Source: a virus
IMG/VR virus record: IMGVR_UViG_2509601008_000001
Strand: one strand, 5' to 3'
DNA: 33,868 nucleotides
Positions 1,885 to 16,286 of the stretch are shown here, in pieces. Position 1 is the stretch's first letter. Each line of letters opens with the position of its first letter. Under the pieces are notes generated by a model that made no database searches, was not told the DNA's origin, and saw only the letters and a list, made by a program, of their open reading frames with translations. The position numbers and the translations under genes were made by a program.

Positions 1885-2150
1885 CCTCTGGATATGGCGA
1901 TGGCTATGGCGATGGCTATGGCTCTGGCCATGGCTCTGGCTATGGCCATGGCTCTGGCTCTGGCTGTGGCGATGGCACTGGCGATGGCTATGGCTCTGGA
2001 TATAGCGATGGCTCTGGCCATGGCTGTGGCGATGGCACTGGCTATGGCTCTGGCACTGGCTCTGGCTGTGGCTCTGGATATGGCGATGGCTATGGCGATG
2101 GCTATGGCGATGGCTATGGCACTAGTGACGATTCAGACAATGATGATTAG
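1872..2150 (+). CDS. Gly-X dipeptide repeat protein with acidic tail
   Basis: GYGDGYGSGHGSG... frame has a GAGGTG RBS at 1861-1866. Such Gly-rich ORFs commonly follow DUF6948 genes. Confidence 0.7.
   Translation: MEEITSGYGDGYGDGYGSGHGSGYGHGSGSGCGDGTGDGYGSGYSDGSGHGCGDGTGYGSGTGSGCGSGYGDGYGDGYGDGYGTSDDSDNDD
1887..2120 (+). repeat. Degenerate hexanucleotide tandem array (GGC-NNT)n
   Basis: ggctatggcgatggctctggccat... with 6-nt periodicity. Several reading frames are open across it. Confidence 0.9.
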
Positions 2151-2177
2151 GTGGACAATGTGACAAGGTGAAAGAAG

Positions 2178-2492
2178 ATGAAGAACGAGAACAAATACAC
2201 GGAATCCATCGTATATATGGAAATGGACAAGATCCTTGAGGGGATTGGAATCAGGCAACTACCTAACCCTGTGCCTCCTGCTCTGGTAGAGAGATTCAAG
2301 AGGGCAGTGCTGGCAAAGGTAAATGATAATACCGATACTGTCGCAATGGTCGGCCGGATGCCTGAGGCAATGGCTATGGTGGTAGCAGCAGCCCTTGCTC
2401 AGAGAGTTACTCGCTTTGAGTATGGCGGGTATAGCCAGGTCTCTCATGTGATTTTTGACTACAGTGAGCAATGCCCGGAGATGAGGGTATGA
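2178..2492 (+). CDS. Small alpha/beta protein, possibly Csx3/Crn3 (STAS-like) related
   Basis: AGGTGA RBS. Motif V-x-M-V-G-R-x-P...A-x-A-L...Y...VIFD recalls Csx3-like proteins. Family call is tentative. Confidence 0.4.
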   Translation: MKNENKYTESIVYMEMDKILEGIGIRQLPNPVPPALVERFKRAVLAKVNDNTDTVAMVGRMPEAMAMVVAAALAQRVTRFEYGGYSQVSHVIFDYSEQCPEMRV

Positions 2493-2863
2493 GCAGTGAC
2501 GCTGCTAGAGACCTAGCTCTCAAAATCAATACTCTCAGAGAGCAGGCTGAAGAGTACGAGGTAGTGCTTAGAGACCTCAGATATCAACACTGGCTCGATA
2601 TCGACACTAGCCAGAAAGAGCTGGGGCTGACTAACGAAACCAAGCGCAAGATGGCTCTTGAGCTAAGGCTAGAGACTGATGAAACGTACAGCAGGATAGC
2701 AAAGGAACTCCGGTATGGGGTCAATATGCTCAAATCATGTATTGACCAAGAAGAGCTAGACCTGCTAAGAGAGTACATCGAGGCAGATGAAAGGATATCA
2801 GAAGAAGATAAGCAAATGGATTTCAAGTATTTTGATGCTGTGGAAATATTACTAGGGATGTGA
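2489..2863 (+). CDS. Hypothetical coiled-coil protein
   Basis: ATGA-coupled start at 2489 preferred over 2471. Helical and acidic. Confidence 0.65.
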   Translation: MSSDAARDLALKINTLREQAEEYEVVLRDLRYQHWLDIDTSQKELGLTNETKRKMALELRLETDETYSRIAKELRYGVNMLKSCIDQEELDLLREYIEADERISEEDKQMDFKYFDAVEILLGM

Positions 2864-2868
2864 GGACA

Positions 2869-3753
2869 ATGGAACTGAGTGTTGATTTATTGAGCGAAAT
2901 GCTTACAGAGAGAGGATTTTACCCTGGGAACATGGGCAATGAGCACGTATGGAAAAACGTAATCAACGGGATACCCTATGCTGTGGATTTCAGAATAGGC
3001 AGCGTATTCCGCTATATGTACGGACAGAGAGAAGAGGACGTAGAAGATGAGGTACTAGCAGACCTGAAAACAGCTATCATAGCAGTAATGCAGGAGGCAA
3101 TAGGCGGGCAGGATGTACAGGCAACAGGGGCTACCAACCAAGAGCCAGAGATCCCACCCACTGAAACAATTGTAACTCAAGAAGATAAGCCTACCGTAGT
3201 GCCTGCGAAAGTACCTCAGAAACCAGCGACTCGTAAGCTGTCCAACGAGGACCTCACTAAAGACAATATCAGACAGTATCTATGCCCAGCTGCTACAGAT
3301 CAGGAAATATTCATGTTCCTCCAGTTATGCGAACATAGAAATTTGAATCCGTTTATCAAAGAAGCATATCTTGTGAAATATAATAATTCTCCTGCAACCT
3401 TGATTGTAGGAAAGGACGCATTCACCAAGAAAGCAGAGGAGCATCCACAGTTTGACGGATTTGAGGCCGGAATTGTAATTGAGAGATCTGGTAAGGTCGA
3501 GTACAGGGCAGGTCAACTAGTTCGGCCTGGCGAAATACTCATAGGCGGCTGGGCTGAGGTGCACAGGAAGGACAGGCAATACCCTTACAGGTCTGAGGTG
3601 TCTATGCAAGAGTATAATACCAACCAGTCCTCCTGGAAGAAATTGCCTGCTACTATGATCCGCAAAGTGGCTCTGGTACAGGCGCTTAGAGAGGCTTTCC
3701 CCTCAGATCTGGGCGGGTGCTACGATTCAGCAGAGATGGGGGAGGTGGTGTGA
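2869..3753 (+). CDS. bet: Phage single-strand annealing recombinase, Bet/RecT family, with N-terminal extension
   Basis: CPAATDQEIFMFLQLC...LNPFIKEAYLVKY...IVGKDAF...GGWAEVHRKD...W.KLPATMIRKVALVQALREAFP. Confidence 0.9.
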   Translation: MELSVDLLSEMLTERGFYPGNMGNEHVWKNVINGIPYAVDFRIGSVFRYMYGQREEDVEDEVLADLKTAIIAVMQEAIGGQDVQATGATNQEPEIPPTETIVTQEDKPTVVPAKVPQKPATRKLSNEDLTKDNIRQYLCPAATDQEIFMFLQLCEHRNLNPFIKEAYLVKYNNSPATLIVGKDAFTKKAEEHPQFDGFEAGIVIERSGKVEYRAGQLVRPGEILIGGWAEVHRKDRQYPYRSEVSMQEYNTNQSSWKKLPATMIRKVALVQALREAFPSDLGGCYDSAEMGEVV

Positions 3754-3909
3754 ATGCATACATATCAATGCTGTGGTTGCCAATTCATGTCAATTCCATG
3801 CAAATTAATTACATGCGACGACGGGGTACTGTTTCCTGACACTTGCCCGATGACCGGGATAAACTATGTTTTCATCGAACTGTGTGGAGAAGAGGAGGGA
3901 ATGAAATGA
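3754..3909 (+). CDS. Cys-rich microprotein, 51 aa
   Basis: Hand translation MHTYQCCGCQFMSIPCKLITCDDGVLFPDTCPMTG... GGAGGTGG RBS; ATGA coupling to the next ORF. Confidence 0.6.
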   Translation: MHTYQCCGCQFMSIPCKLITCDDGVLFPDTCPMTGINYVFIELCGEEEGMK

Positions 3910-4088
3910 TATGCCCACTTCTTTCTTCTTCACATTTTACAAACTGTCAAACATCCAGATGTGGGTGGTGGGATGAAATCCGGCAATGCTGTGCGATTAT
4001 TCCAGCGAATTTCGGACACATGATGAAACAGGCAGCGAAAGCTAGGCTGGACAGTGATGCAGAGCTTAGCGGGGGTGCTCCTGAATGA
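3906..4088 (+). CDS. Cys-rich small phage protein
   Basis: MICP...C....CGWW......CAI motif. Start moved to the ATGA-coupled ATG at 3906. Confidence 0.65.
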   Translation: MICPLLSSSHFTNCQTSRCGWWDEIRQCCAIIPANFGHMMKQAAKARLDSDAELSGGAPE

Positions 4089-4273
4089 GCCCAGAGGAAT
4101 ACATGGACAAGAGAGAGCTCCTGCTCAAGCAGCAACGCAGATGCAAAAACGATGAGGACAGGGCAAGGCTGCAAGCAAAAATAGAGAAGCTCGATAGCAC
4201 ATTTGAGAATGGGTTTTTCAGAAGGGATATAGGTAGACCCGAGCAGAAGTTGACTCAGTACGGGGTGGTGTGA
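4085..4273 (+). CDS. Hypothetical coiled-coil protein
   Basis: ATGA-coupled 62-aa ORF. Confidence 0.6.
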   Translation: MSPEEYMDKRELLLKQQRRCKNDEDRARLQAKIEKLDSTFENGFFRRDIGRPEQKLTQYGVV

Positions 4274-4837
4274 ATGGATCTCTACAAAATAATCTGTCCG
4301 TATTGCAAGCATGAGCAGATGCCTTTCGGATATGAAAAGGAAGGCTACGGAGCGGTGATATGTGAGGAGTGTGGACAGCCATATGTGAATCAGACTACAC
4401 GGACAATAGCATATCACTCCTATGCTCTGGTAGGCATTGGGCCGCAGGAAGAGCCAGCCCTTCCTACAAAAGAAGAGGTACAAGAAGCCAGCGAGGCGGA
4501 CAGAAAGCAGCAGTTCTCAGAAGTGAAACAGAAACTCGAAGAGATTCTGCTGATCTCTGAAGATTCGCCCAGGGCGCTGATCTCTGAAGTTTCGCCCTGG
4601 GTACAAACCCCCGGACACAAAAACGGTATGTACAGAATTGATGGGGAATATGTAGAGGTAAGATACCTATCAAGCCACCCAGTGAGGACCACTCTAGCAG
4701 ACATACACATGCTATGCGAGGAGAGCAACCCCACTGAAGCAATAAACTCCCTGCTAGGCACAACACAGGATACGAGAAACACTGCAGCACTGAATTTTTT
4801 TATCAAAGCTGTGAAAAGAGGAGACGTGATTTTATGA
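4274..4837 (+). CDS. Zn-ribbon-containing hypothetical protein
   Basis: N-terminal CPYC...CEECG. GGTGG RBS. Confidence 0.7.
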   Translation: MDLYKIICPYCKHEQMPFGYEKEGYGAVICEECGQPYVNQTTRTIAYHSYALVGIGPQEEPALPTKEEVQEASEADRKQQFSEVKQKLEEILLISEDSPRALISEVSPWVQTPGHKNGMYRIDGEYVEVRYLSSHPVRTTLADIHMLCEESNPTEAINSLLGTTQDTRNTAALNFFIKAVKRGDVIL

Positions 4838-4968
4838 GCTCGGAACCATGCCCTAGGCACACACAGTGCAGTTACAAGGAGAAGGGGGCTCACTGCCTCC
4901 TGGACAGAGGTGGGGACTGCTATAGGTGGTTTGTCTCTGCTTCCAGGTACGTAGATGAGGAGGTCTAA
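4834..4968 (+). CDS. Cys/His microprotein, 44 aa
   Basis: Hand translation MSSEPCPRHTQCSYKEKGAHCLLDRGGDCYRWF... ATGA coupling. Confidence 0.55.
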   Translation: MSSEPCPRHTQCSYKEKGAHCLLDRGGDCYRWFVSASRYVDEEV

Positions 4969-4969
4969 T

Positions 4970-5113
4970 ATGACCTCTTCTACTACACCAGCTGTATCAG
5001 AGTGCAAGCACAGCAAGAAGTGCAGTAGATACGATCCAGAGAGCTACACATGCACACGTGGAGAGAGCGACTACTGCGGACACTACAAGGCAATTAAGGG
5101 GTTAAGAGTATGA
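4970..5113 (+). CDS. Cys/His microprotein, 47 aa
   Basis: Hand translation MTSSTTPAVSECKHSKKCSRYDPESYTCTRGESDYCGHYK... GAGGAGGT RBS. Confidence 0.6.
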   Translation: MTSSTTPAVSECKHSKKCSRYDPESYTCTRGESDYCGHYKAIKGLRV

Positions 5114-5316
5114 TCTTCACATTCAAAAATAAATACAGTGGACAGGATGAGCAGTACGAAGTGTCAGACAGCCTGTGCGAGTACAAGGGGATCACTCCTA
5201 GTGCTCCTGTGGTGATGGAAACAGACACAGCATACGTATTAGAGCCAGAGAAAGGGAAGCGAGCGTACTTGAACAAAGCACACTGCAAGAAGGTGATTCT
5301 ATATGAGAGAGTTTAA
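5110..5316 (+). CDS. Hypothetical protein
   Basis: ATGA-coupled 68-aa ORF. Confidence 0.6.
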   Translation: MIFTFKNKYSGQDEQYEVSDSLCEYKGITPSAPVVMETDTAYVLEPEKGKRAYLNKAHCKKVILYERV

Positions 5317-5722
5317 ATTTAGAGCATGGGATGAGAAAAACAGTAAAATGTATTATTCTGATAATCTTCCAGCTAATTATTACTTTGGTCACGATGGGAA
5401 CAATAAAATATATTTTTCCGGTGATGTGTGGGATAACGACGAACAAATGTATTATAGAGATACTATATCCTCGGATGCTATGCAGTTCACCGGACAACAT
5501 GATAAAAATGGAAAAGAAATTTACGAGGGCGATGTCGTGGAAGTGGGGGAGTGGAGAGAAAAAGTAGACGAAATCGGATCTCATTGGAAATGGTATGTGT
5601 ACGTCGTGTCTTATTGCGATCAACGATGGTTGCCGGACGACTTAGACGAGGCACGGATCATCGGTAATATCTATGAAAACCCTGAACTCCTCAAGGCACT
5701 AACAGGAGGGATGAATATATGA
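5303..5722 (+). CDS. yopX: YopX family protein
   Basis: MREFKFRAWD...MQFTG..DKNGKEIYEGDVV...IIGNIYENPELL is the YopX signature. Confidence 0.9.
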   Translation: MREFKFRAWDEKNSKMYYSDNLPANYYFGHDGNNKIYFSGDVWDNDEQMYYRDTISSDAMQFTGQHDKNGKEIYEGDVVEVGEWREKVDEIGSHWKWYVYVVSYCDQRWLPDDLDEARIIGNIYENPELLKALTGGMNI

Positions 5723-5889
5723 GCACAATATATAGACCGTGCCCGGAGTGCGGCAGCCCAGTGGAGAGTGATACCGTCAAAGCTAAATGCATTCAGACCT
5801 ATATATGTAGTGTATGTGCAGCGCAGCTTTGGCTAATTCAGACTCCTCTTTTCGACAAACTCATTACTGCACAGGTGGGGAGAAAATGA
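5719..5889 (+). CDS. Zn-ribbon microprotein, 56 aa
   Basis: Hand translation MSTIYRPCPECGSPV...YICSVC... ATGA coupling on both sides. Confidence 0.65.
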   Translation: MSTIYRPCPECGSPVESDTVKAKCIQTYICSVCAAQLWLIQTPLFDKLITAQVGRK

Positions 5890-6158
5890 TCTCACTATCT
5901 GAGTCTGAGTTTATTACCAGAGAAGAGTTTGAGGTGGCCTTGGATGCTGCTGTGCTACAAACCTGCAGAGAAATAGCAGACGATAGAAAGCGAATTACTG
6001 TGCTAGAATCCTTCGCACATGGAGTATTCAACGTACTGTTTATGAAGTTCAGAGGAGTAAGAGATATACTAGATGTCAAAGTCAGGCAATATCTCCCAGG
6101 GTTTGAACTCCAAAACTCTACCGAATCTCTACAGGAGGAGATTAGCGCAGAAACGTAG
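5886..6158 (+). CDS. Hypothetical protein
   Basis: Start moved to the ATGA-coupled ATG at 5886 (MISLSESEFITREEFE...). Confidence 0.6.
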   Translation: MISLSESEFITREEFEVALDAAVLQTCREIADDRKRITVLESFAHGVFNVLFMKFRGVRDILDVKVRQYLPGFELQNSTESLQEEISAET

Positions 6159-7343: not shown

Positions 7344-7789
7344 CAAAATCCCACACTGCAAAACCTATCGTTTTTAAGTGGACACCTGCTCGCATAAAAG
7401 GGGCAAAACTAGCAGCGAGCACCACAATGACGCAAGAAGAGATCGCAAAAGAGTGCAGTGTTCACAGAATGACCGTTAATGAGTGGTTTCAGGCTCAAGA
7501 GTTCAAAGAAAAAGTTGCAGAGTTAATAATGCAGGATGAGCGGTTTACTAGGCCGGGGCTGCTAAAAATAACCGGGGCGATACTGGATAAAAAAATAGAA
7601 AGAGCAGCGGAGGATCGGTCTACAGCAGCAGACTATATCAAAATAGTAGCCGACATTGCCGGGATAAACAAAGCAGGTAATGAGATCAATATATACAATG
7701 CAGTAGGCGTAGTCAATACCCAGGAGGTGAAGGATGCAGTATCTAGGCTCTGCGAAAAGCTCAGGGAAGCAGACGACTCAACCGACTGA
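7340..7789 (+). CDS. terS: Terminase small subunit (HTH)
   Basis: MTQEEIAKEC.VHRMTVNEW....EF HTH directly upstream of TerL. Start may be 7328 or 7340. Confidence 0.8.
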   Translation: MTKSHTAKPIVFKWTPARIKGAKLAASTTMTQEEIAKECSVHRMTVNEWFQAQEFKEKVAELIMQDERFTRPGLLKITGAILDKKIERAAEDRSTAADYIKIVADIAGINKAGNEINIYNAVGVVNTQEVKDAVSRLCEKLREADDSTD

Positions 7790-10262
7790 GGACGAGCTGC
7801 AAGTGTGGGCTAGCGCTCCTGCAGCCTTTGCCCGGTACTGTAGCGGGGGGCGGTGGTATCCGGCTAAGCATCTAGTAGAGCTATCGCACCGGCTTATGGA
7901 TGTAGCTACCGGGGATATTACGCATCTCATGATATTCATGCCTCCAAGGCACGGCAAAAGTGAACTGACATCTAAGTACTTCCCTGCCTGGTACCTGGGG
8001 AAATACCCAGACAATAGGGTCATCCTCACAGGTTACGAGGCAGACTTTGCCGCTCAATGGGGGTACAAGGCTAGAAATATTATGCATGAGCACGGCCCTG
8101 CTCTATTCAATCTGACAGTAGCAGGCAACTCATCGGCTAGGGATAGATGGGATATAGCCGGTCATCTGGGCGGCATGAGTACAGCAGGAGTAGGGGGTGC
8201 CATCACTGGTAAGGGAGCGCATTGCTTATCGGGTGAAACACGGATACATACTAATTTCGGTATGCTGCGAATCGACGAGGTGGTGCAAAAAGCTAAATAC
8301 GATGAACGGTATAATAACAGGTTAAGGGTGCTAGCATATGACCACCGTAACCAAAGAGCAGTATGGAAAAGAGTTAAAGCTACACGGATTGTCCGAGATA
8401 GGCGACTGTTGGAAATCACCACAGCTAGTGGGGATAAAATCAGAGCTACCGATGAACATCGTTTTTTTGTGCACGAACGCGGATACACAGAAGCGAACCG
8501 TCTGTGTCAAGGAGACCGGTTTATATCGGTCAAAGAGCAGATCAAACAAAACGTGCGCCCAATGTGGAGAAGCGAAGGGTGGCCGGGGTGCACTGTGCAT
8601 GCCGTGTTACCAGAAGCTCAGGACAGTTCACGTAGTTCTGAAATGTTCGCTGTGTGGGGAGATATACGAAATCCCATTATACGATTACCGGAAAGCACTG
8701 GCAAGAAAACAGAAGGATTACTATTGTTCAGTGGCGTGTTCTCGGAAGCACCATGCCATAAAGAATGCAAAACGTTGTGTCGTGTGTGCAGCACCGATGC
8801 CAGGGAAACCGAGAAACATGTACTGTTCCACGGTATGTCGGGAAGCAGCGAGGCCACCGAAAAGGAAAGCGATATGTCCGGTTTGTGGGGATGCATTTTA
8901 CCCAATATCTCACCGGACCGCGCATTGTTCAAGACGTTGCGCCAATACCGCGCACTCAAAGAGAATGACGGGAGCTGGAAATTCTCACTACAAGACCGGG
9001 ACAAGTTATGCGAAGTGGTTCGACGAGATGAGGCCACTCGTGTTGGAGAGAGACGGACACCGGTGTGCCATATGTGGCAGCAATTACAATCTTCATATCC
9101 ACCATATAAACGAAAATGTTGTGGACAACACCCCGACAAACTTAATATCAATGTGCCCCACTTGCCACATCATCCACCACAAATCGAATGCGACACCGTA
9201 TCCTCAGTTACAAAAGTTAGCGGAAACGCGCACACGGTCTATGACATCCAAGTGGAAGACTGCAACAATTTCTTTGCTGAGAACATACTCGTCCATAACT
9301 GCCTGATAATTGATGACCCTATCAAGAACGCAGAAGAAGCCAACAGCAAGACCTATAGAGACAAATCATATGATTGGTACAGATCCACAGCATACACACG
9401 TATAGAGCCGGGTGGGTCTGTGGTCATTATCCAAACACGATGGCACGAGGACGACCTCTCAGGCAGACTCCTTAAGGAAGAGCCGGAAAAATGGACAGTA
9501 ATAAATCTCCCTGCACTGGCAGAGGAAGGAGGGGATCAGCTAGGCAGGCAACCAGGAGAGGCGCTATTCCCAAAACGGTATGATGTACATGCACTCCAGC
9601 AGATCAAAAGGACAGTCGGCACATATTGGTGGAATGCACTCTATCAACAGCGTCCGGCTGCCTCAGAGGGTGCTATATTCAAGCGGCAATATTTCCAGTA
9701 TTGCTATATCGAGGACGGGCTCTATGTGCTCAGAGACAAGCGGGTCAAGTACTACGACTGTACTATATATCAGACATGCGATCCTGCAGTCTCAACAAAG
9801 GCAAGCGCTGACTATTTTGTTCTAGCTACATGGGCTGTAACCCCAGACCAGGATCTTATTCTCCTGGACATCCTCAGAACCAGGCTAGAAGGGCCTGACC
9901 AAATCAATCTATTCAAACAGCAGTATGCTAGATGGAAACCAGCATACCAGGGCATAGAGGCGGTAGGTGTAGGCAAAACACTCTACCAAATGCTTGTGAG
10001 GGAGGGACTGCCTATCAGAGAGCTCAAAGCAGAGTCCGATAAAGTGACCAGGGCTCTTCCCGCAGCCGCTCGCATGGAGTCCGGCAGTGTCTATTTTATG
10101 CAGGATTTGCCAGGGCTAGACGAGTTTGAAGAAGAGCTCTTGTCATTCCCAAAAGGGAAACATGACGATCAGGTAGACTGTCTCTCTTATGCTGTGCAGC
10201 TAGCTCTGCAACAGTACCAGGACTTTGACCTTAGCATGCTCATCAAAACTTTTCCGAGGTAA
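7734..10262 (+). CDS. terL: Terminase large subunit containing an intein
   Basis: GGAGGTGA RBS. Walker A region MPPRHGKSE; Walker B GAH|CLIIDDP restored after splicing; IQTRWHEDDL; nuclease motif HDDQVD. About 483 aa after splicing. Confidence 0.97.
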   Translation: MQYLGSAKSSGKQTTQPTEDELQVWASAPAAFARYCSGGRWYPAKHLVELSHRLMDVATGDITHLMIFMPPRHGKSELTSKYFPAWYLGKYPDNRVILTGYEADFAAQWGYKARNIMHEHGPALFNLTVAGNSSARDRWDIAGHLGGMSTAGVGGAITGKGAHCLSGETRIHTNFGMLRIDEVVQKAKYDERYNNRLRVLAYDHRNQRAVWKRVKATRIVRDRRLLEITTASGDKIRATDEHRFFVHERGYTEANRLCQGDRFISVKEQIKQNVRPMWRSEGWPGCTVHAVLPEAQDSSRSSEMFAVWGDIRNPIIRLPESTGKKTEGLLLFSGVFSEAPCHKECKTLCRVCSTDARETEKHVLFHGMSGSSEATEKESDMSGLWGCILPNISPDRALFKTLRQYRALKENDGSWKFSLQDRDKLCEVVRRDEATRVGERRTPVCHMWQQLQSSYPPYKRKCCGQHPDKLNINVPHLPHHPPQIECDTVSSVTKVSGNAHTVYDIQVEDCNNFFAENILVHNCLIIDDPIKNAEEANSKTYRDKSYDWYRSTAYTRIEPGGSVVIIQTRWHEDDLSGRLLKEEPEKWTVINLPALAEEGGDQLGRQPGEALFPKRYDVHALQQIKRTVGTYWWNALYQQRPAASEGAIFKRQYFQYCYIEDGLYVLRDKRVKYYDCTIYQTCDPAVSTKASADYFVLATWAVTPDQDLILLDILRTRLEGPDQINLFKQQYARWKPAYQGIEAVGVGKTLYQMLVREGLPIRELKAESDKVTRALPAAARMESGSVYFMQDLPGLDEFEEELLSFPKGKHDDQVDCLSYAVQLALQQYQDFDLSMLIKTFPR
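8223..9299 (+). mobile_element. Intein, 359 aa (TerL residues 164-522), inserted just before Walker B
   Basis: Starts CLSGET (block A); TDEHRF (block B TxxH); VYDIQVEDCNNFFAENILVHN (blocks F/G); +1 residue is Cys. Confidence 0.96.
8338..9306 (+). CDS. HNH endonuclease with four Cys4 Zn fingers, nested in the +1 frame of the intein
   Basis: Four CxxC...CxxxC/CxxC fingers; GxGNxxYKxG motif; RDGHRCAICG...LHIHHINEN..DN.PTNLISMCPTCH. True start uncertain (8338 or 8452). Confidence 0.9.
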   Translation: MTTVTKEQYGKELKLHGLSEIGDCWKSPQLVGIKSELPMNIVFLCTNADTQKRTVCVKETGLYRSKSRSNKTCAQCGEAKGGRGALCMPCYQKLRTVHVVLKCSLCGEIYEIPLYDYRKALARKQKDYYCSVACSRKHHAIKNAKRCVVCAAPMPGKPRNMYCSTVCREAARPPKRKAICPVCGDAFYPISHRTAHCSRRCANTAHSKRMTGAGNSHYKTGTSYAKWFDEMRPLVLERDGHRCAICGSNYNLHIHHINENVVDNTPTNLISMCPTCHIIHHKSNATPYPQLQKLAETRTRSMTSKWKTATISLLRTYSSITA

Positions 10263-12150: not shown

Positions 12151-12444
12151 ATGTACGTAATACCGGATACAGACTACACGATTAATGCTTCTGCTAAAAC
12201 AATAACGCTAGCGGCAGCATACGCTACTCTAAGCGCAGGACAGATTACAAAAATTAAGGATATCACTACAGAAGAGATCCTCTATGATTCGGAAAGGGTC
12301 TCGTTTACGGGGCCACAGATCTCGGTTGCTACGGGAGTAATCACCTACACGCAAGGAAACAAAGTGGCCAATACCGATAAGCTGCGCATAGTAGTTGATG
12401 CTAATTACTCAGATATATATCACCTCGATGGAGGGAGCGCATAA
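12151..12444 (+). CDS. Virion beta-rich accessory protein ending in DGGSA
   Basis: YTINASAKTITL...I.DIT..EILY resembles the N-terminal module of phage fibre proteins. Confidence 0.65.
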   Translation: MYVIPDTDYTINASAKTITLAAAYATLSAGQITKIKDITTEEILYDSERVSFTGPQISVATGVITYTQGNKVANTDKLRIVVDANYSDIYHLDGGSA

Positions 12445-13802
12445 TGCCACGTAATCAATTAATACAGATCAGACGGGACACGACAGCAAACTGGACGAAC
12501 ACTAATCCAATCCCTGCAGAGGGGGAGCTCTGCCTGGACACAAATACCGGATACCTGAAAGTAGGGGACGGGTCATCTAATTATGTAGATCTACCTATCT
12601 TCACCCATGGCGCATCTATCACTGAGGCAATAGGCATAGAGTGGGATACCAGCAGCACAAGCCCAACGCTCAAGAGGATCGACATCAATGGTAACGAGCG
12701 CTCTACTGTAGACGCTACATATTTCGATAATCACTCTATCTGGGGAAATATAAAAAGATGCACTATAAACCCAGCTATCGGACTCCCTGTCTACGGCACT
12801 AATGCAAGAGGTGACGGGCTAGATCTAACAGGCGCATCAGGAAACGTGATGGTTAAGATCCCCAAATTCTATGTGAAGTTCAGCACGGACGGAACTTATC
12901 ATAGATGGTGGATTAGTCCTGTTGCCCTCGCTGGTTTCGAGTTACATCCAGCTTTTCTTCAGAGGGGCGGTACAGAAGCAGAGCTTTTTGTTTCGGCATA
13001 TGAAGCGGCAGGGTTCCTGGATGGGGCGACATTCAAACTCACGTCCGCTACAGGACTGCAACCAGTGACGGGTGATGTCTCCTACCCCAATTTGCCGAAC
13101 TCGGGCCGTCTGTACATTATGGACGCCGGCACCTATGCAAATAACATAGGAACTGGCTACGGCATCATGAATATATGGACATGGTCTGCAATCCGGCTAT
13201 TGGTGCTCACTGAACTGGGTACGCTCAACTCACAGGCCGCGTTAGGCAGGGGAATCGTAGATCTTGCATTGGGTACGGGATACGCGGGTCTGCTCACGGG
13301 TGCATTGTCAGCCGATACCAATGTTGCGACAAACGGTTCTGGAATGGGAACGGGAACAAACGGAGCAACTCCCGTTGTATGGCGCGGCATAGAGAATATT
13401 TGGGGCAATACTCTAAGTTTCGTGATCGGAGTAACCTTTTTTGATACCGTTCACTGGGTGCTGAAACCAGACGGGACAGGAGTAGTGGCTGCACCGCTTA
13501 CCACTGGGAACTACGTAGAATCAGCATCAGTGCCGCCCAATACCACGAGTGGATATATCTCAAGAGTGTTCGTGGACAGCGCGCTGAAATATATGATGCT
13601 GGGGTCTGCTGTCGCGGGATCCTCAAGCACCTATGCATGTGATCTGTACACCGTACGCGAAACATCCGCAACAGGTACACACGGACAATGCAGCGGTGCG
13701 TGGGGTGCAGGAGATGGAGCCGGAATAAATTATCAACGTAGCGCGATATACGGCCATTTATCCAGACAAGTAGGGGCAAGGATCGAATTTTTGAAGAGGT
13801 GA
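12444..13802 (+). CDS. Adhesin/fibre: Mtd_N-like N-terminus plus C-type-lectin/FGE-like C-terminal domain
   Basis: IQIRRDTTANWT..NPIPAEGELCLDT.TG.LKVGDG (Mtd_N-like); VMVKIPKFY, HPAF, WRGIENIWGN, and terminal GAW..G..AG...GARI. Confidence 0.8.
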   Translation: MPRNQLIQIRRDTTANWTNTNPIPAEGELCLDTNTGYLKVGDGSSNYVDLPIFTHGASITEAIGIEWDTSSTSPTLKRIDINGNERSTVDATYFDNHSIWGNIKRCTINPAIGLPVYGTNARGDGLDLTGASGNVMVKIPKFYVKFSTDGTYHRWWISPVALAGFELHPAFLQRGGTEAELFVSAYEAAGFLDGATFKLTSATGLQPVTGDVSYPNLPNSGRLYIMDAGTYANNIGTGYGIMNIWTWSAIRLLVLTELGTLNSQAALGRGIVDLALGTGYAGLLTGALSADTNVATNGSGMGTGTNGATPVVWRGIENIWGNTLSFVIGVTFFDTVHWVLKPDGTGVVAAPLTTGNYVESASVPPNTTSGYISRVFVDSALKYMMLGSAVAGSSSTYACDLYTVRETSATGTHGQCSGAWGAGDGAGINYQRSAIYGHLSRQVGARIEFLKR

Positions 13803-15048: not shown

Positions 15049-15263
15049 TTCTTGTTTTTCTCTGCGTCTATGCATGTTTGCATAATTCTTATCATATCTC
15101 CGTACCTGATATAATAATACTTGCCTTCGTGTCTCTTGTATCCGTTTTTATCAAGTTCCTCAATAACGGATATAGGCAGTGATGCTATATGATGTCTATC
15201 AATTATTCCTTTTTTTCTAGCTACTTCATCTGACGGTAGTTCCGGTATATCTGTATTAGTCAT
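15045..15263 (-). CDS. Small antisense-oriented hypothetical protein (moron-like)
   Basis: 72-aa AT-rich ORF filling the MuF-protease gap. ATG lies about 28 nt from the TATA element read on the minus strand. Confidence 0.6.
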   Translation of the reverse strand: MTNTDIPELPSDEVARKKGIIDRHHIASLPISVIEELDKNGYKRHEGKYYYIRYGDMIRIMQTCIDAEKNKN

Positions 15264-15278
15264 TGTCTATATTATAAT

Positions 15279-15307
15279 GTGTACACTAAATTATATATAG
15301 TATATAC
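15279..15307. promoter_or_regulatory. Late promoter element, copy 2 of the 29-bp repeat, probably bidirectional
   Basis: Identical to 10558-10586. Divergent ATGs at 15327 (+) and 15263 (-). Confidence 0.8.
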
Positions 15308-15326
15308 CTACATTATACTGTATATA

Positions 15327-16286
15327 ATGATATTAGAGGGCATTGCTTTTCCATTAGACACACTAAACAAGAACGGCTGGGGCATCCCCTCCTCTGATGC
15401 CGACAATGCTATCTCTTCTCTCAAAAACGCTGTAGTCCGGGTCTGTTCTCGCAATGATCCCCACGGCTGTGATATCTCCGAAGATCCTAAAGCAGAAATA
15501 GGTAGAGTGCTAGATGCCTGGAAGGACGGGTCTAATGTATATACCAAAGTAGAGATTACAGATTCGGTAGCAGCAGCCAAAGTTAAAGAAGGAACCTGGC
15601 AGAAAAAGTGGAGCGTATACGGCAAAGCAGGCGCAATAAACGAGGGATGGACTAACGGAGCGTCACTAAAATCTATTACGCTTGTGACAAATCCAGCATG
15701 GGATCAATCCTCATTTGATGTGGCTGCCTCTGCTGAAGATCCCAAATTACTATTTTTCAATGATTTTTCAATAACAGCTTCGGTAGGTAATACCATGGAC
15801 GACAACAACATAACACCACCCGGCGGGGCAATACCTGCCGAATTTGAGCAGCGTATGGCTGACTCACAGAAACAGATCGATACTCTCATTGTAGAGAGGA
15901 AGGCACTTGCTGAGCAGGTAGATGCTCTCACTAAAGAGAGAGATGAACTAAAAACTGTAGCAGCGTCACTGAAAGAAGAGACAGGCAAAATGGTCTCAAT
16001 GGATGAAGTCAAGCAGATGATCGCTGCAGCAAAAGCAGAAGATCGGGAACAGCAGGCTCACGAAGCCGCTCTTGTGAAACTCACAGCAGCAAGAGCAGAG
16101 CTTGGGCTTGAGACCAAAGCAGAGGCATACTCTGAACTTAGCGCATCAGCAATTGAAGAGGCCGCAGCAGAATGGGGTCAGGTACAGATATCAGCATCAG
16201 CAAATCAGATCAAATATCCTTCTACTGTCCCCGCAAACAGTGCCAGGCTTAAGGTATTCGATCCATTCACAGGGGGATACGTATAA
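15327..16286 (+). CDS. Prohead protease-like domain fused to a coiled-coil scaffold
   Basis: MILEGIAFPLDTLNKNGWGI...IGRVLDAW...SITLVTNPAW, then a long Ala/Glu helical region. The ORF-track start at 15279 lies inside the promoter. Confidence 0.75.
   Translation: MILEGIAFPLDTLNKNGWGIPSSDADNAISSLKNAVVRVCSRNDPHGCDISEDPKAEIGRVLDAWKDGSNVYTKVEITDSVAAAKVKEGTWQKKWSVYGKAGAINEGWTNGASLKSITLVTNPAWDQSSFDVAASAEDPKLLFFNDFSITASVGNTMDDNNITPPGGAIPAEFEQRMADSQKQIDTLIVERKALAEQVDALTKERDELKTVAASLKEETGKMVSMDEVKQMIAAAKAEDREQQAHEAALVKLTAARAELGLETKAEAYSELSASAIEEAAAEWGQVQISASANQIKYPSTVPANSARLKVFDPFTGGYV

Follow-up and report, generated by a model that had tools for sequence, protein, structure and literature searches.

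A terL intein in a methanogen provirus that probably carries its homing endonuclease as a separate gene nested in the +1 frame

The virus record IMGVR_UViG_2509601008_000001 of IMG/VR (33,868 nucleotides, the window analyzed here) contains a gene for the large terminase, terL, that is interrupted by an intein, and the DNA of this intein holds a second open reading frame (ORF) in the +1 frame, encoding a predicted HNH endonuclease. We consider it probable (about 0.8) that the element belongs to a widespread family of terL inteins whose homing endonuclease is not a domain of the intein but is encoded by a gene of its own, nested in the +1 frame. The HNH frame represents a real, conserved protein family. 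Both frames are under selection: going along the element, selection acts first on the intein frame, then on the HNH frame and finally on the intein frame again.

Loci for comparison were gathered from species genomes (11) and IMG/VR (80), together with the contigs encoding three homologues. An alignment-based scan of IMG/VR gave 93 matches; a scan of the same database with the single HNH protein as query gave none, and blastn of terL against the phage collection returned short matches only. The frame relation was the same everywhere: the HNH frame lies +1 relative to the long open terL frame in 98 of 98 loci. The terL frame is open over 517-1379 codons or to the contig end in these loci, and the third frame over just 5-169 codons. 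An in-frame, canonical version of the HNH intein was sought among the 98 loci and none was found. Nearly all loci share the junction ...NFFA..ILVHN↓C(L/I)IIDD (arrows mark splice junctions or the intein insertion point).

Clustering at 90% nucleotide identity left 70 non-redundant inteins. In their central region the third frame contains 620 stops, the HNH frame is interrupted in three inteins, and the intein frame has no stop at all. The initial annotation of this DNA, made from the letters alone, had pointed to homologues with stops in the intein frame as something to look for; all 70 central regions are free of them. A split-intein reading was rejected for the same reason. The three inteins with a stop in the HNH frame and a still open intein frame (L033, L080 and L094) may carry decaying endonucleases or sequencing errors.

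The provirus intein follows this pattern, with seven stops in the third frame and none in the intein frame over its central 210 codons. When the region was shuffled among synonymous codons, preserving both the HNH protein and its codon usage, the intein frame was stop-free in 0 of 2000 shuffles, with a mean of 8.4 stops. The open intein frame therefore exceeds chance. The initial annotation had estimated this chance at about 1e-5, which is too low, since the HNH-preserving null gives a value nearer 2e-4 for a single locus (Poisson, mean 8.4). The family-wide evidence for selection is far stronger than such a single-locus figure.

The shift of selection along the element is apparent from amino acid identities over all pairs and from the codon positions at which substitutions fall, the latter counted in pairs with 70-97% nucleotide identity in the centre. 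In the N-terminal lobe, identity is 34% in the intein frame and 17-19% in the other frames, and substitutions are distributed over intein codon positions 1, 2 and 3 as 33, 21 and 46%, the last being the intein wobble position. In the centre, the HNH frame reaches 44% identity and the substitutions are distributed as 54, 25 and 20%, intein position 1 being the wobble position of the HNH frame. The C-terminal lobe gives a mixed picture, with identities of 52% (intein frame), 46% (HNH frame) and 39% (third frame), and 39, 24 and 36% of the substitutions at the three positions. An additional amino acid constraint on the intein-frame spacer was considered and rejected, because identity in the centre is no higher than in the unselected third frame (23% vs 25%). 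The roughly 214 spacer codons of the intein frame are thus constrained solely to avoid stops.

Structure prediction agrees with this division. With 61 intein-frame sequences, AlphaFold2 predicted beta-rich lobes for residues 1-100 and 321-359, with predicted local distance difference test scores (pLDDT) of 89-98 and 93-97, respectively. Residues 111-320 scored 43-59 and were almost without secondary structure. The initial annotation had described the centre as a non-protein shadow of about 225 codons without stops. The description as a shadow is accurate, since the centre shows no conservation beyond stop avoidance and no predicted fold, but its length is about 214 codons (residues 107-320). 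The proposal made there that both frames are selected is borne out by the 70 open relatives, the shuffles and the frame-switching substitution pattern.

The features of the element are collected in Table 1. The terL ORF encodes 842 amino acids (aa) and continues across the intein; the exact protein is present in public collections. Pfam recognizes two terminase domains and Intein_splicing in it, the latter with an E-value of 1.9e-14 on the whole ORF and, for the intein sequence, 57.5 bits against a cut-off of 35.8 (PF14890). Intein boundaries were mapped in 92 loci. The intein opens with the Cys at 8223 (CLSGET), carries TDEH as residues 76-79 in block B and ends with VHN at 9299, and the class-1 features C1, T76..H79, H358-N359 and C+1 are all present. 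Four residues (C1, H79, D341 and N359) are invariant across 61 relatives. The insertion point lies directly before Walker B (GKGAH↓C...VHN↓CLIIDD). The length of 359 aa, the intact splicing blocks, the position beside Walker B and all coordinates given in the initial annotation hold. Intact motifs in an essential terL gene suggest that the intein is active in splicing.

Table 1. Features of the terL element in the window (positions counted from the first nucleotide of the window).
Feature	Positions	Strand	Basis
terL (large terminase) ORF	7734-10262	+	Pfam Terminase_6N, Terminase_6C, Intein_splicing
N-extein, C-terminal end ...GGAITGKGAH	7734-8222	+	Aligns with intein-free TerL alleles up to GKGA(H/D)
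Class-1 intein, 359 aa, Cys1...His-Asn	8223-9299	+	Intein_splicing E 1.8e-15; invariant C1, H79, D341, N359
Intein N-terminal splicing lobe, residues 1-106, blocks A and B	8223-8540	+	pLDDT 89-98 (residues 1-100), beta strands
Intein-frame spacer, residues 107-320, ~214 codons	8541-9182	+	Stop-free, not conserved, predicted disordered
Intein C-terminal splicing lobe, residues 321-359, blocks F and G, ...NFFAENILVHN	9183-9299	+	pLDDT 93-97; motif kept in nearly all loci
C-extein, first residue +1 Cys, Walker B CLIIDDP	9300-10262	+	Sequence reading, alignment with intein-free alleles
Candidate HNH expression signals: TATA-like TATAATAA (8310-8317), Shine-Dalgarno-like AAGGGTG (8324-8330), ATG (8338-8340)	8310-8340	+	
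Nested +1-frame ORF, predicted zinc-ribbon HNH endonuclease, 322 aa	8338-9306	+	Homologues, conserved residues, predicted fold
Four zinc-ribbon/treble-clef modules, C73 to C201, +1 frame	8554-8940	+	Invariant or nearly invariant Cys pairs; weak DZR_2 match
HNH (beta-beta-alpha-metal) nuclease domain, residues 223-308 of the +1-frame protein	9004-9261	+	Structure matches; Pfam HNH residues 243-282, E 2.5e-3

The nested protein combines four N-terminal CxxC...CxxxC modules with an HNH domain that has its own CxxC...CxxC pair, and the TGA stop of its ORF (9304-9306) spans extein codons +2 and +3 (CTG ATA). Public protein sets contain 49 called homologues of the HNH frame with 29-55% identity, in which the catalytic and zinc residues are kept. 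At least 90% of 38 aligned HNH sequences retain H255/H256, N264/N268, H277/H281, C243/C246, C273/C276 and all zinc ligands. The AlphaFold2 model of the HNH frame, obtained with the family alignment, has a mean pLDDT of 84.5. A VIA-align comparison of residues 223-308 gave Z-scores of 8.1 (IscB), 7.9 (Cap5) and 7.3 (EcoKMcrA), nearly all of the top matches being HNH nucleases, and a Foldseek search of the PDB with the whole model gave no match at E <= 1e-3 (best E about 1e-2). Homologues, conserved residues and fold thus agree with the initial annotation, which had read 8338-9306 as an HNH endonuclease with four zinc fingers.

Almost all HNH homologues end in a tail, ...SMTSKWK..TSL..YSSTTA, that corresponds to intein blocks F and G read in the +1 frame. 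This shared tail was the first sign that the whole HNH family resides inside inteins. A distant relative is free-standing: gp30 of Halorubrum virus HRTV-28 (L119; record positions 15070-15864) is a 264-aa HNH protein encoded among head and tail genes. It matches the HNH protein with an E-value of 1e-10 and 28% identity over query residues 95-279 only, so that the intein-shadow tail is excluded from the match.

Some variation within the family was also observed. Over 9208-9288, the last 30 or so HNH codons overlap intein blocks F and G; two helices are predicted there (pLDDT 94-97), substitutions are spread across both wobble positions, and the segment lies outside the match to the free-standing relative. 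It may encode folded parts of both proteins. Longer inteins (414-502 aa) with longer nested ORFs occur in L015, L066, L069, L073, L058 and L070, and additional N-terminal zinc-ribbon repeats in the homologues P0026, P0035, P0042 and P0043. The 535-aa homologue P0049, from a 43-kb ENA contig, consists of the TerL N-extein and the N-terminal intein lobe fused in frame to an HNH protein. Its HNH motif is garbled, and the protein appears to derive from a copy that is frameshifted or decaying, or else from faulty sequencing.

The element is carried by a tailed provirus with an integrase, RecT, YopX, a Mu-F-like protein, a match to HK97-like capsid protein and a tape measure protein. The genome bearing it comprises 2,714,013 bases in two contigs (longest 2,428,904) and contains mcrA. 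Its McrA (571 aa) clusters at 90% identity with those of Methanomethylovorans, Methanolobus and Methanococcoides, and the host is a methanogen of the Methanosarcinaceae. The HNH gene is present in this genome as a single copy, and the 322-aa ORF is missing from the public protein sets for it. A 452-aa protein with an N-terminal domain of a major tropism determinant (Mtd_N, E 3e-18) is encoded elsewhere in the provirus (12444-13802, + strand), and the related locus L005 has an mtd_2nd match at the corresponding position. L005 also contains, at 2116-5931, a 1271-aa terL with two inteins, as does L029: a LAGLIDADG-like intein directly after Walker A (PPRHGK) and the intein with out-of-frame HNH before Walker B.

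Intein-free terL alleles, which the initial annotation had proposed as a check, were found in related methanogen genomes. In a set of 284 genomes from the same order, the five closest TerL alleles (67-70% identity) have lengths of 481-494 aa and continue through ...GKGA(H/D)LLIIDDP... without interruption, i.e., they represent empty sites. An HNH profile detected no homologue in the genomes with these alleles, and the same profile matched the provirus-bearing genome with an E-value of 8e-128. Among 401 sampled genomes of the phylum, a full-length HNH match was present only in the provirus-bearing genome; the element also occurs on two contigs of Methanothrix metagenome-assembled genomes. That the closest TerL alleles lack both intein and HNH gene fits a mobile element. 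Together with the conserved HNH protein and the open intein frames, these alleles support the earlier proposal of a dual-coding selfish element.

For the translation of the nested gene, candidate signals lie just upstream of its ATG. The AAGGGTG motif is separated from ATG 8338 by a 7-nucleotide spacer, and the TATA-like element TATAATAA is centred about 24 nucleotides upstream. L019, the closest relative, has the block at 8310-8340 in almost identical form, and L020 retains most of it. Many other relatives have an ATG with a Shine-Dalgarno-like motif near intein codon 52, and most have an ATG at intein codons 30-60.

These features can be combined in a homing cycle. The TerL precursor would splice with the spacer acting as a floppy linker, restoring TerL; splicing is known from mini-inteins in which a linker takes the place of the endonuclease domain. 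The HNH protein would be translated separately from an internal start, here probably ATG 8338. It would act as a nuclease on the empty terL site, cutting intein-free terL at ...GKGA(H/D)↓LLIIDD... during co-infection or superinfection. Repair would then copy intein and HNH gene jointly into the empty allele.

Several observations weigh against a separately expressed homing endonuclease. The Pfam HNH score of the 322-aa protein is 18.4 bits, under the curated cut-off of 21.4, although relatives exceed the cut-offs (Gordonia phage Clown, HNH_3, 26.9 vs 24.8; L007, HNH, 21.7 vs 21.4). The conservation of the Shine-Dalgarno/TATA-like block is ambiguous because the same bases encode conserved intein residues, and the block is only a hint of an HNH start signal. 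Near-identical inteins in divergent exteins were sought among 62 representatives and none were found, so very recent homing was not detected. The provirus copy and L019 look vertically related, with 72% identity in the exteins and 65% in HNH, and in a quick tree the provirus copy groups with L019, L055 and a Methanothrix copy with moderate support. In the same set of 62, extein identity and HNH identity show only a weak correlation (Spearman 0.32), a hint of older transfers.

The out-of-frame layout itself is already known: the family was noted in Brucella phages in 2012-2015 and in actinophages in 2025. In Brucella phage Pr (Perisivirus; GenBank JN939332), terL is annotated with 'intein present' and a nested +1-frame 'putative HNH endonuclease', and an intein-encoded HNH gene out of frame within terL was reported for all brucellaphages (Tevdoradze et al., 2015; PMC4422536). 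That published work contains no selection analysis of the two frames. The HNH protein of phages Tb and Pr is homologous to the one described here (tblastn E 5e-31, 34% identity over 72% of the query) and lies in the same +1 frame, and the intein has the C-terminal junction ...NFFANGILVHN↓CVIIDDP before Walker B. Differences are the host, proteobacterial for these podophages and archaeal for the provirus, and the HNH ORF, which in the Brucella phages is shorter (228 aa), codes for a smaller number of N-terminal zinc ribbons and stops a few codons short of the end of the intein.

Gordonia phage Clown (L081, MT771343), which infects an actinobacterial instead of an archaeal host, has an HNH homologue (E 2e-43) at the same insertion site. 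Pfam HNH_3/HNH matches occur in its +1 frame only, and its 385-aa intein frame matches the splicing domain only. The Clown intein is listed merely as 'HNH', not among the out-of-frame types, by Gosselin, Arsenault and Gogarten (2025, bioRxiv 10.1101/2025.01.02.630785); the boundaries mapped here agree with the published 2348-3502. The junction HN↓C(L/V/G)IIDD is shared by methanogen provirus, brucellaphages and Clown.

The design was formalized for actinophages with out-of-frame Endo VII-like endonucleases and with antisense LAGLIDADG and VSR types (Gosselin et al., 2025). The Endo VII-like inteins, many of them in terL, also have a same-strand endonuclease ORF nested in another frame between the splicing blocks, with an in-frame translation that lacks recognizable structure, but they differ in nuclease ('frame 3') and intein cluster and are confined to actinophages. 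The initial annotation had correctly pointed to such actinophage cases and had missed the brucellaphage record of the same family. In the ShiLan type of phage DNA methylases (Arsenault et al., 2025; PMC11855218), an out-of-frame HNH gene likewise sits inside an open host ORF, and internal or leaderless translation initiation was proposed; in contrast to the present family there is no intein splicing domain, and the insert is retained as a loop of the host protein. Fractured genes (Dassa et al., 2009; PMC2677866) also combine an intein and a separately translated endonuclease into one mobile unit, but there the host gene and intein are split and spliced in trans, whereas here the intein frame is continuous in 70/70 relatives. 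No paper was found that describes an archaeal-virus example of the out-of-frame HNH intein, and the archaeal host appears to be new.

The evidence also bears on other explanations of the nested frame. Two compensating indels, introduced by sequencing or assembly, could in principle mask a canonical in-frame HNH intein. This is extremely improbable, since the same frame relation recurs in all 98 loci, which were assembled independently of one another and include finished genomes of isolates (Clown and more than 40 brucellaphage records), and no in-frame version was found. Instead of a free-standing HNH protein, +1 frameshifting by ribosomes that translate the TerL/intein frame might yield a fusion in which the N-extein and the N-terminal intein lobe precede HNH. 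The upstream limit of the HNH-frame ORF is indeed highly variable, some relatives lack an ATG with a Shine-Dalgarno-like motif, and P0049 reads as such a fusion. Still, most relatives have the ATG at intein codons 30-60, often with a Shine-Dalgarno-like motif, no conserved slippery site was seen, the garbled HNH motif of P0049 looks decayed or mis-sequenced, and the GenBank annotators of the brucellaphages set an independent start. We regard frameshifting as very unlikely.

Two further possibilities accept a separate HNH gene, and each is unlikely, though less so than frameshifting. HNH genes frequently adjoin terminase genes, and the main role of the nested protein might be that of a terminase cofactor instead of a homing enzyme, comparable to HNH proteins that aid packaging in HK97-type phages; its place inside terL would then reflect functional coupling. 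The 2015 brucellaphage paper (PMC4422536) raised this possibility, citing Kala et al. (2014). Against it stand the five closest TerL alleles, which lack the intein and come from genomes without an HNH homologue, indicating that this TerL lineage works without HNH. Moreover, the HNH gene never occurs in terL without the intein (98/98 loci), and the free-standing relative in HRTV-28 lies amid tail genes, not beside the terminase. Alternatively, the intein could be fixed in the methanogen provirus, with the HNH gene a recently inactivated relic and the splicing frame alone mattering. Decay does occur, as HNH-frame stops in 3 of 70 relatives with an open intein frame indicate, the provirus may be old, and no recent transfer was detected. 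The HNH ORF is nevertheless intact across 322 codons with a confident predicted fold, and retains all invariant and nearly invariant family residues, the alignment columns being defined on the provirus sequence itself. A nested gene for a homing endonuclease, expressed separately from the intein, remains the explanation that we prefer.

How such a layout is maintained is a further question. With about even odds, we propose that being out of frame is the ancestral, obligate and stable state of the whole intein/HNH lineage and not a short-lived step toward an in-frame intein, and that this lineage crossed into archaeal tailed viruses (Methanosarcinaceae, Methanothrix). The uniform +1 position of HNH, the lack of in-frame versions in the loci compared and the 70 open intein frames support a stable state. 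The lineage extends over viruses of Actinomycetota, Bacillota, Pseudomonadota and Cyanobacteriota, in addition to the archaeal tailed viruses.

The terL element provides a clean natural case of long-range dual coding, in which selection alternates between two frames along about 1 kb and acts on one of them only to keep it free of stops. It also indicates that a single mobile unit made up of an intein and a nuclease translated on its own can be maintained in many virus lineages, to which a methanogen provirus is now added. Gene callers annotate terL or HNH, seldom both, and the terL of relatives is often reported as fragments flanking an HNH gene. What remains most interesting is the apparently obligate +1 arrangement, without in-frame versions in the 98 loci, which span bacterial and archaeal viruses. 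If the out-of-frame state is obligate, this would imply selection to uncouple expression of the nuclease from that of the essential host protein.

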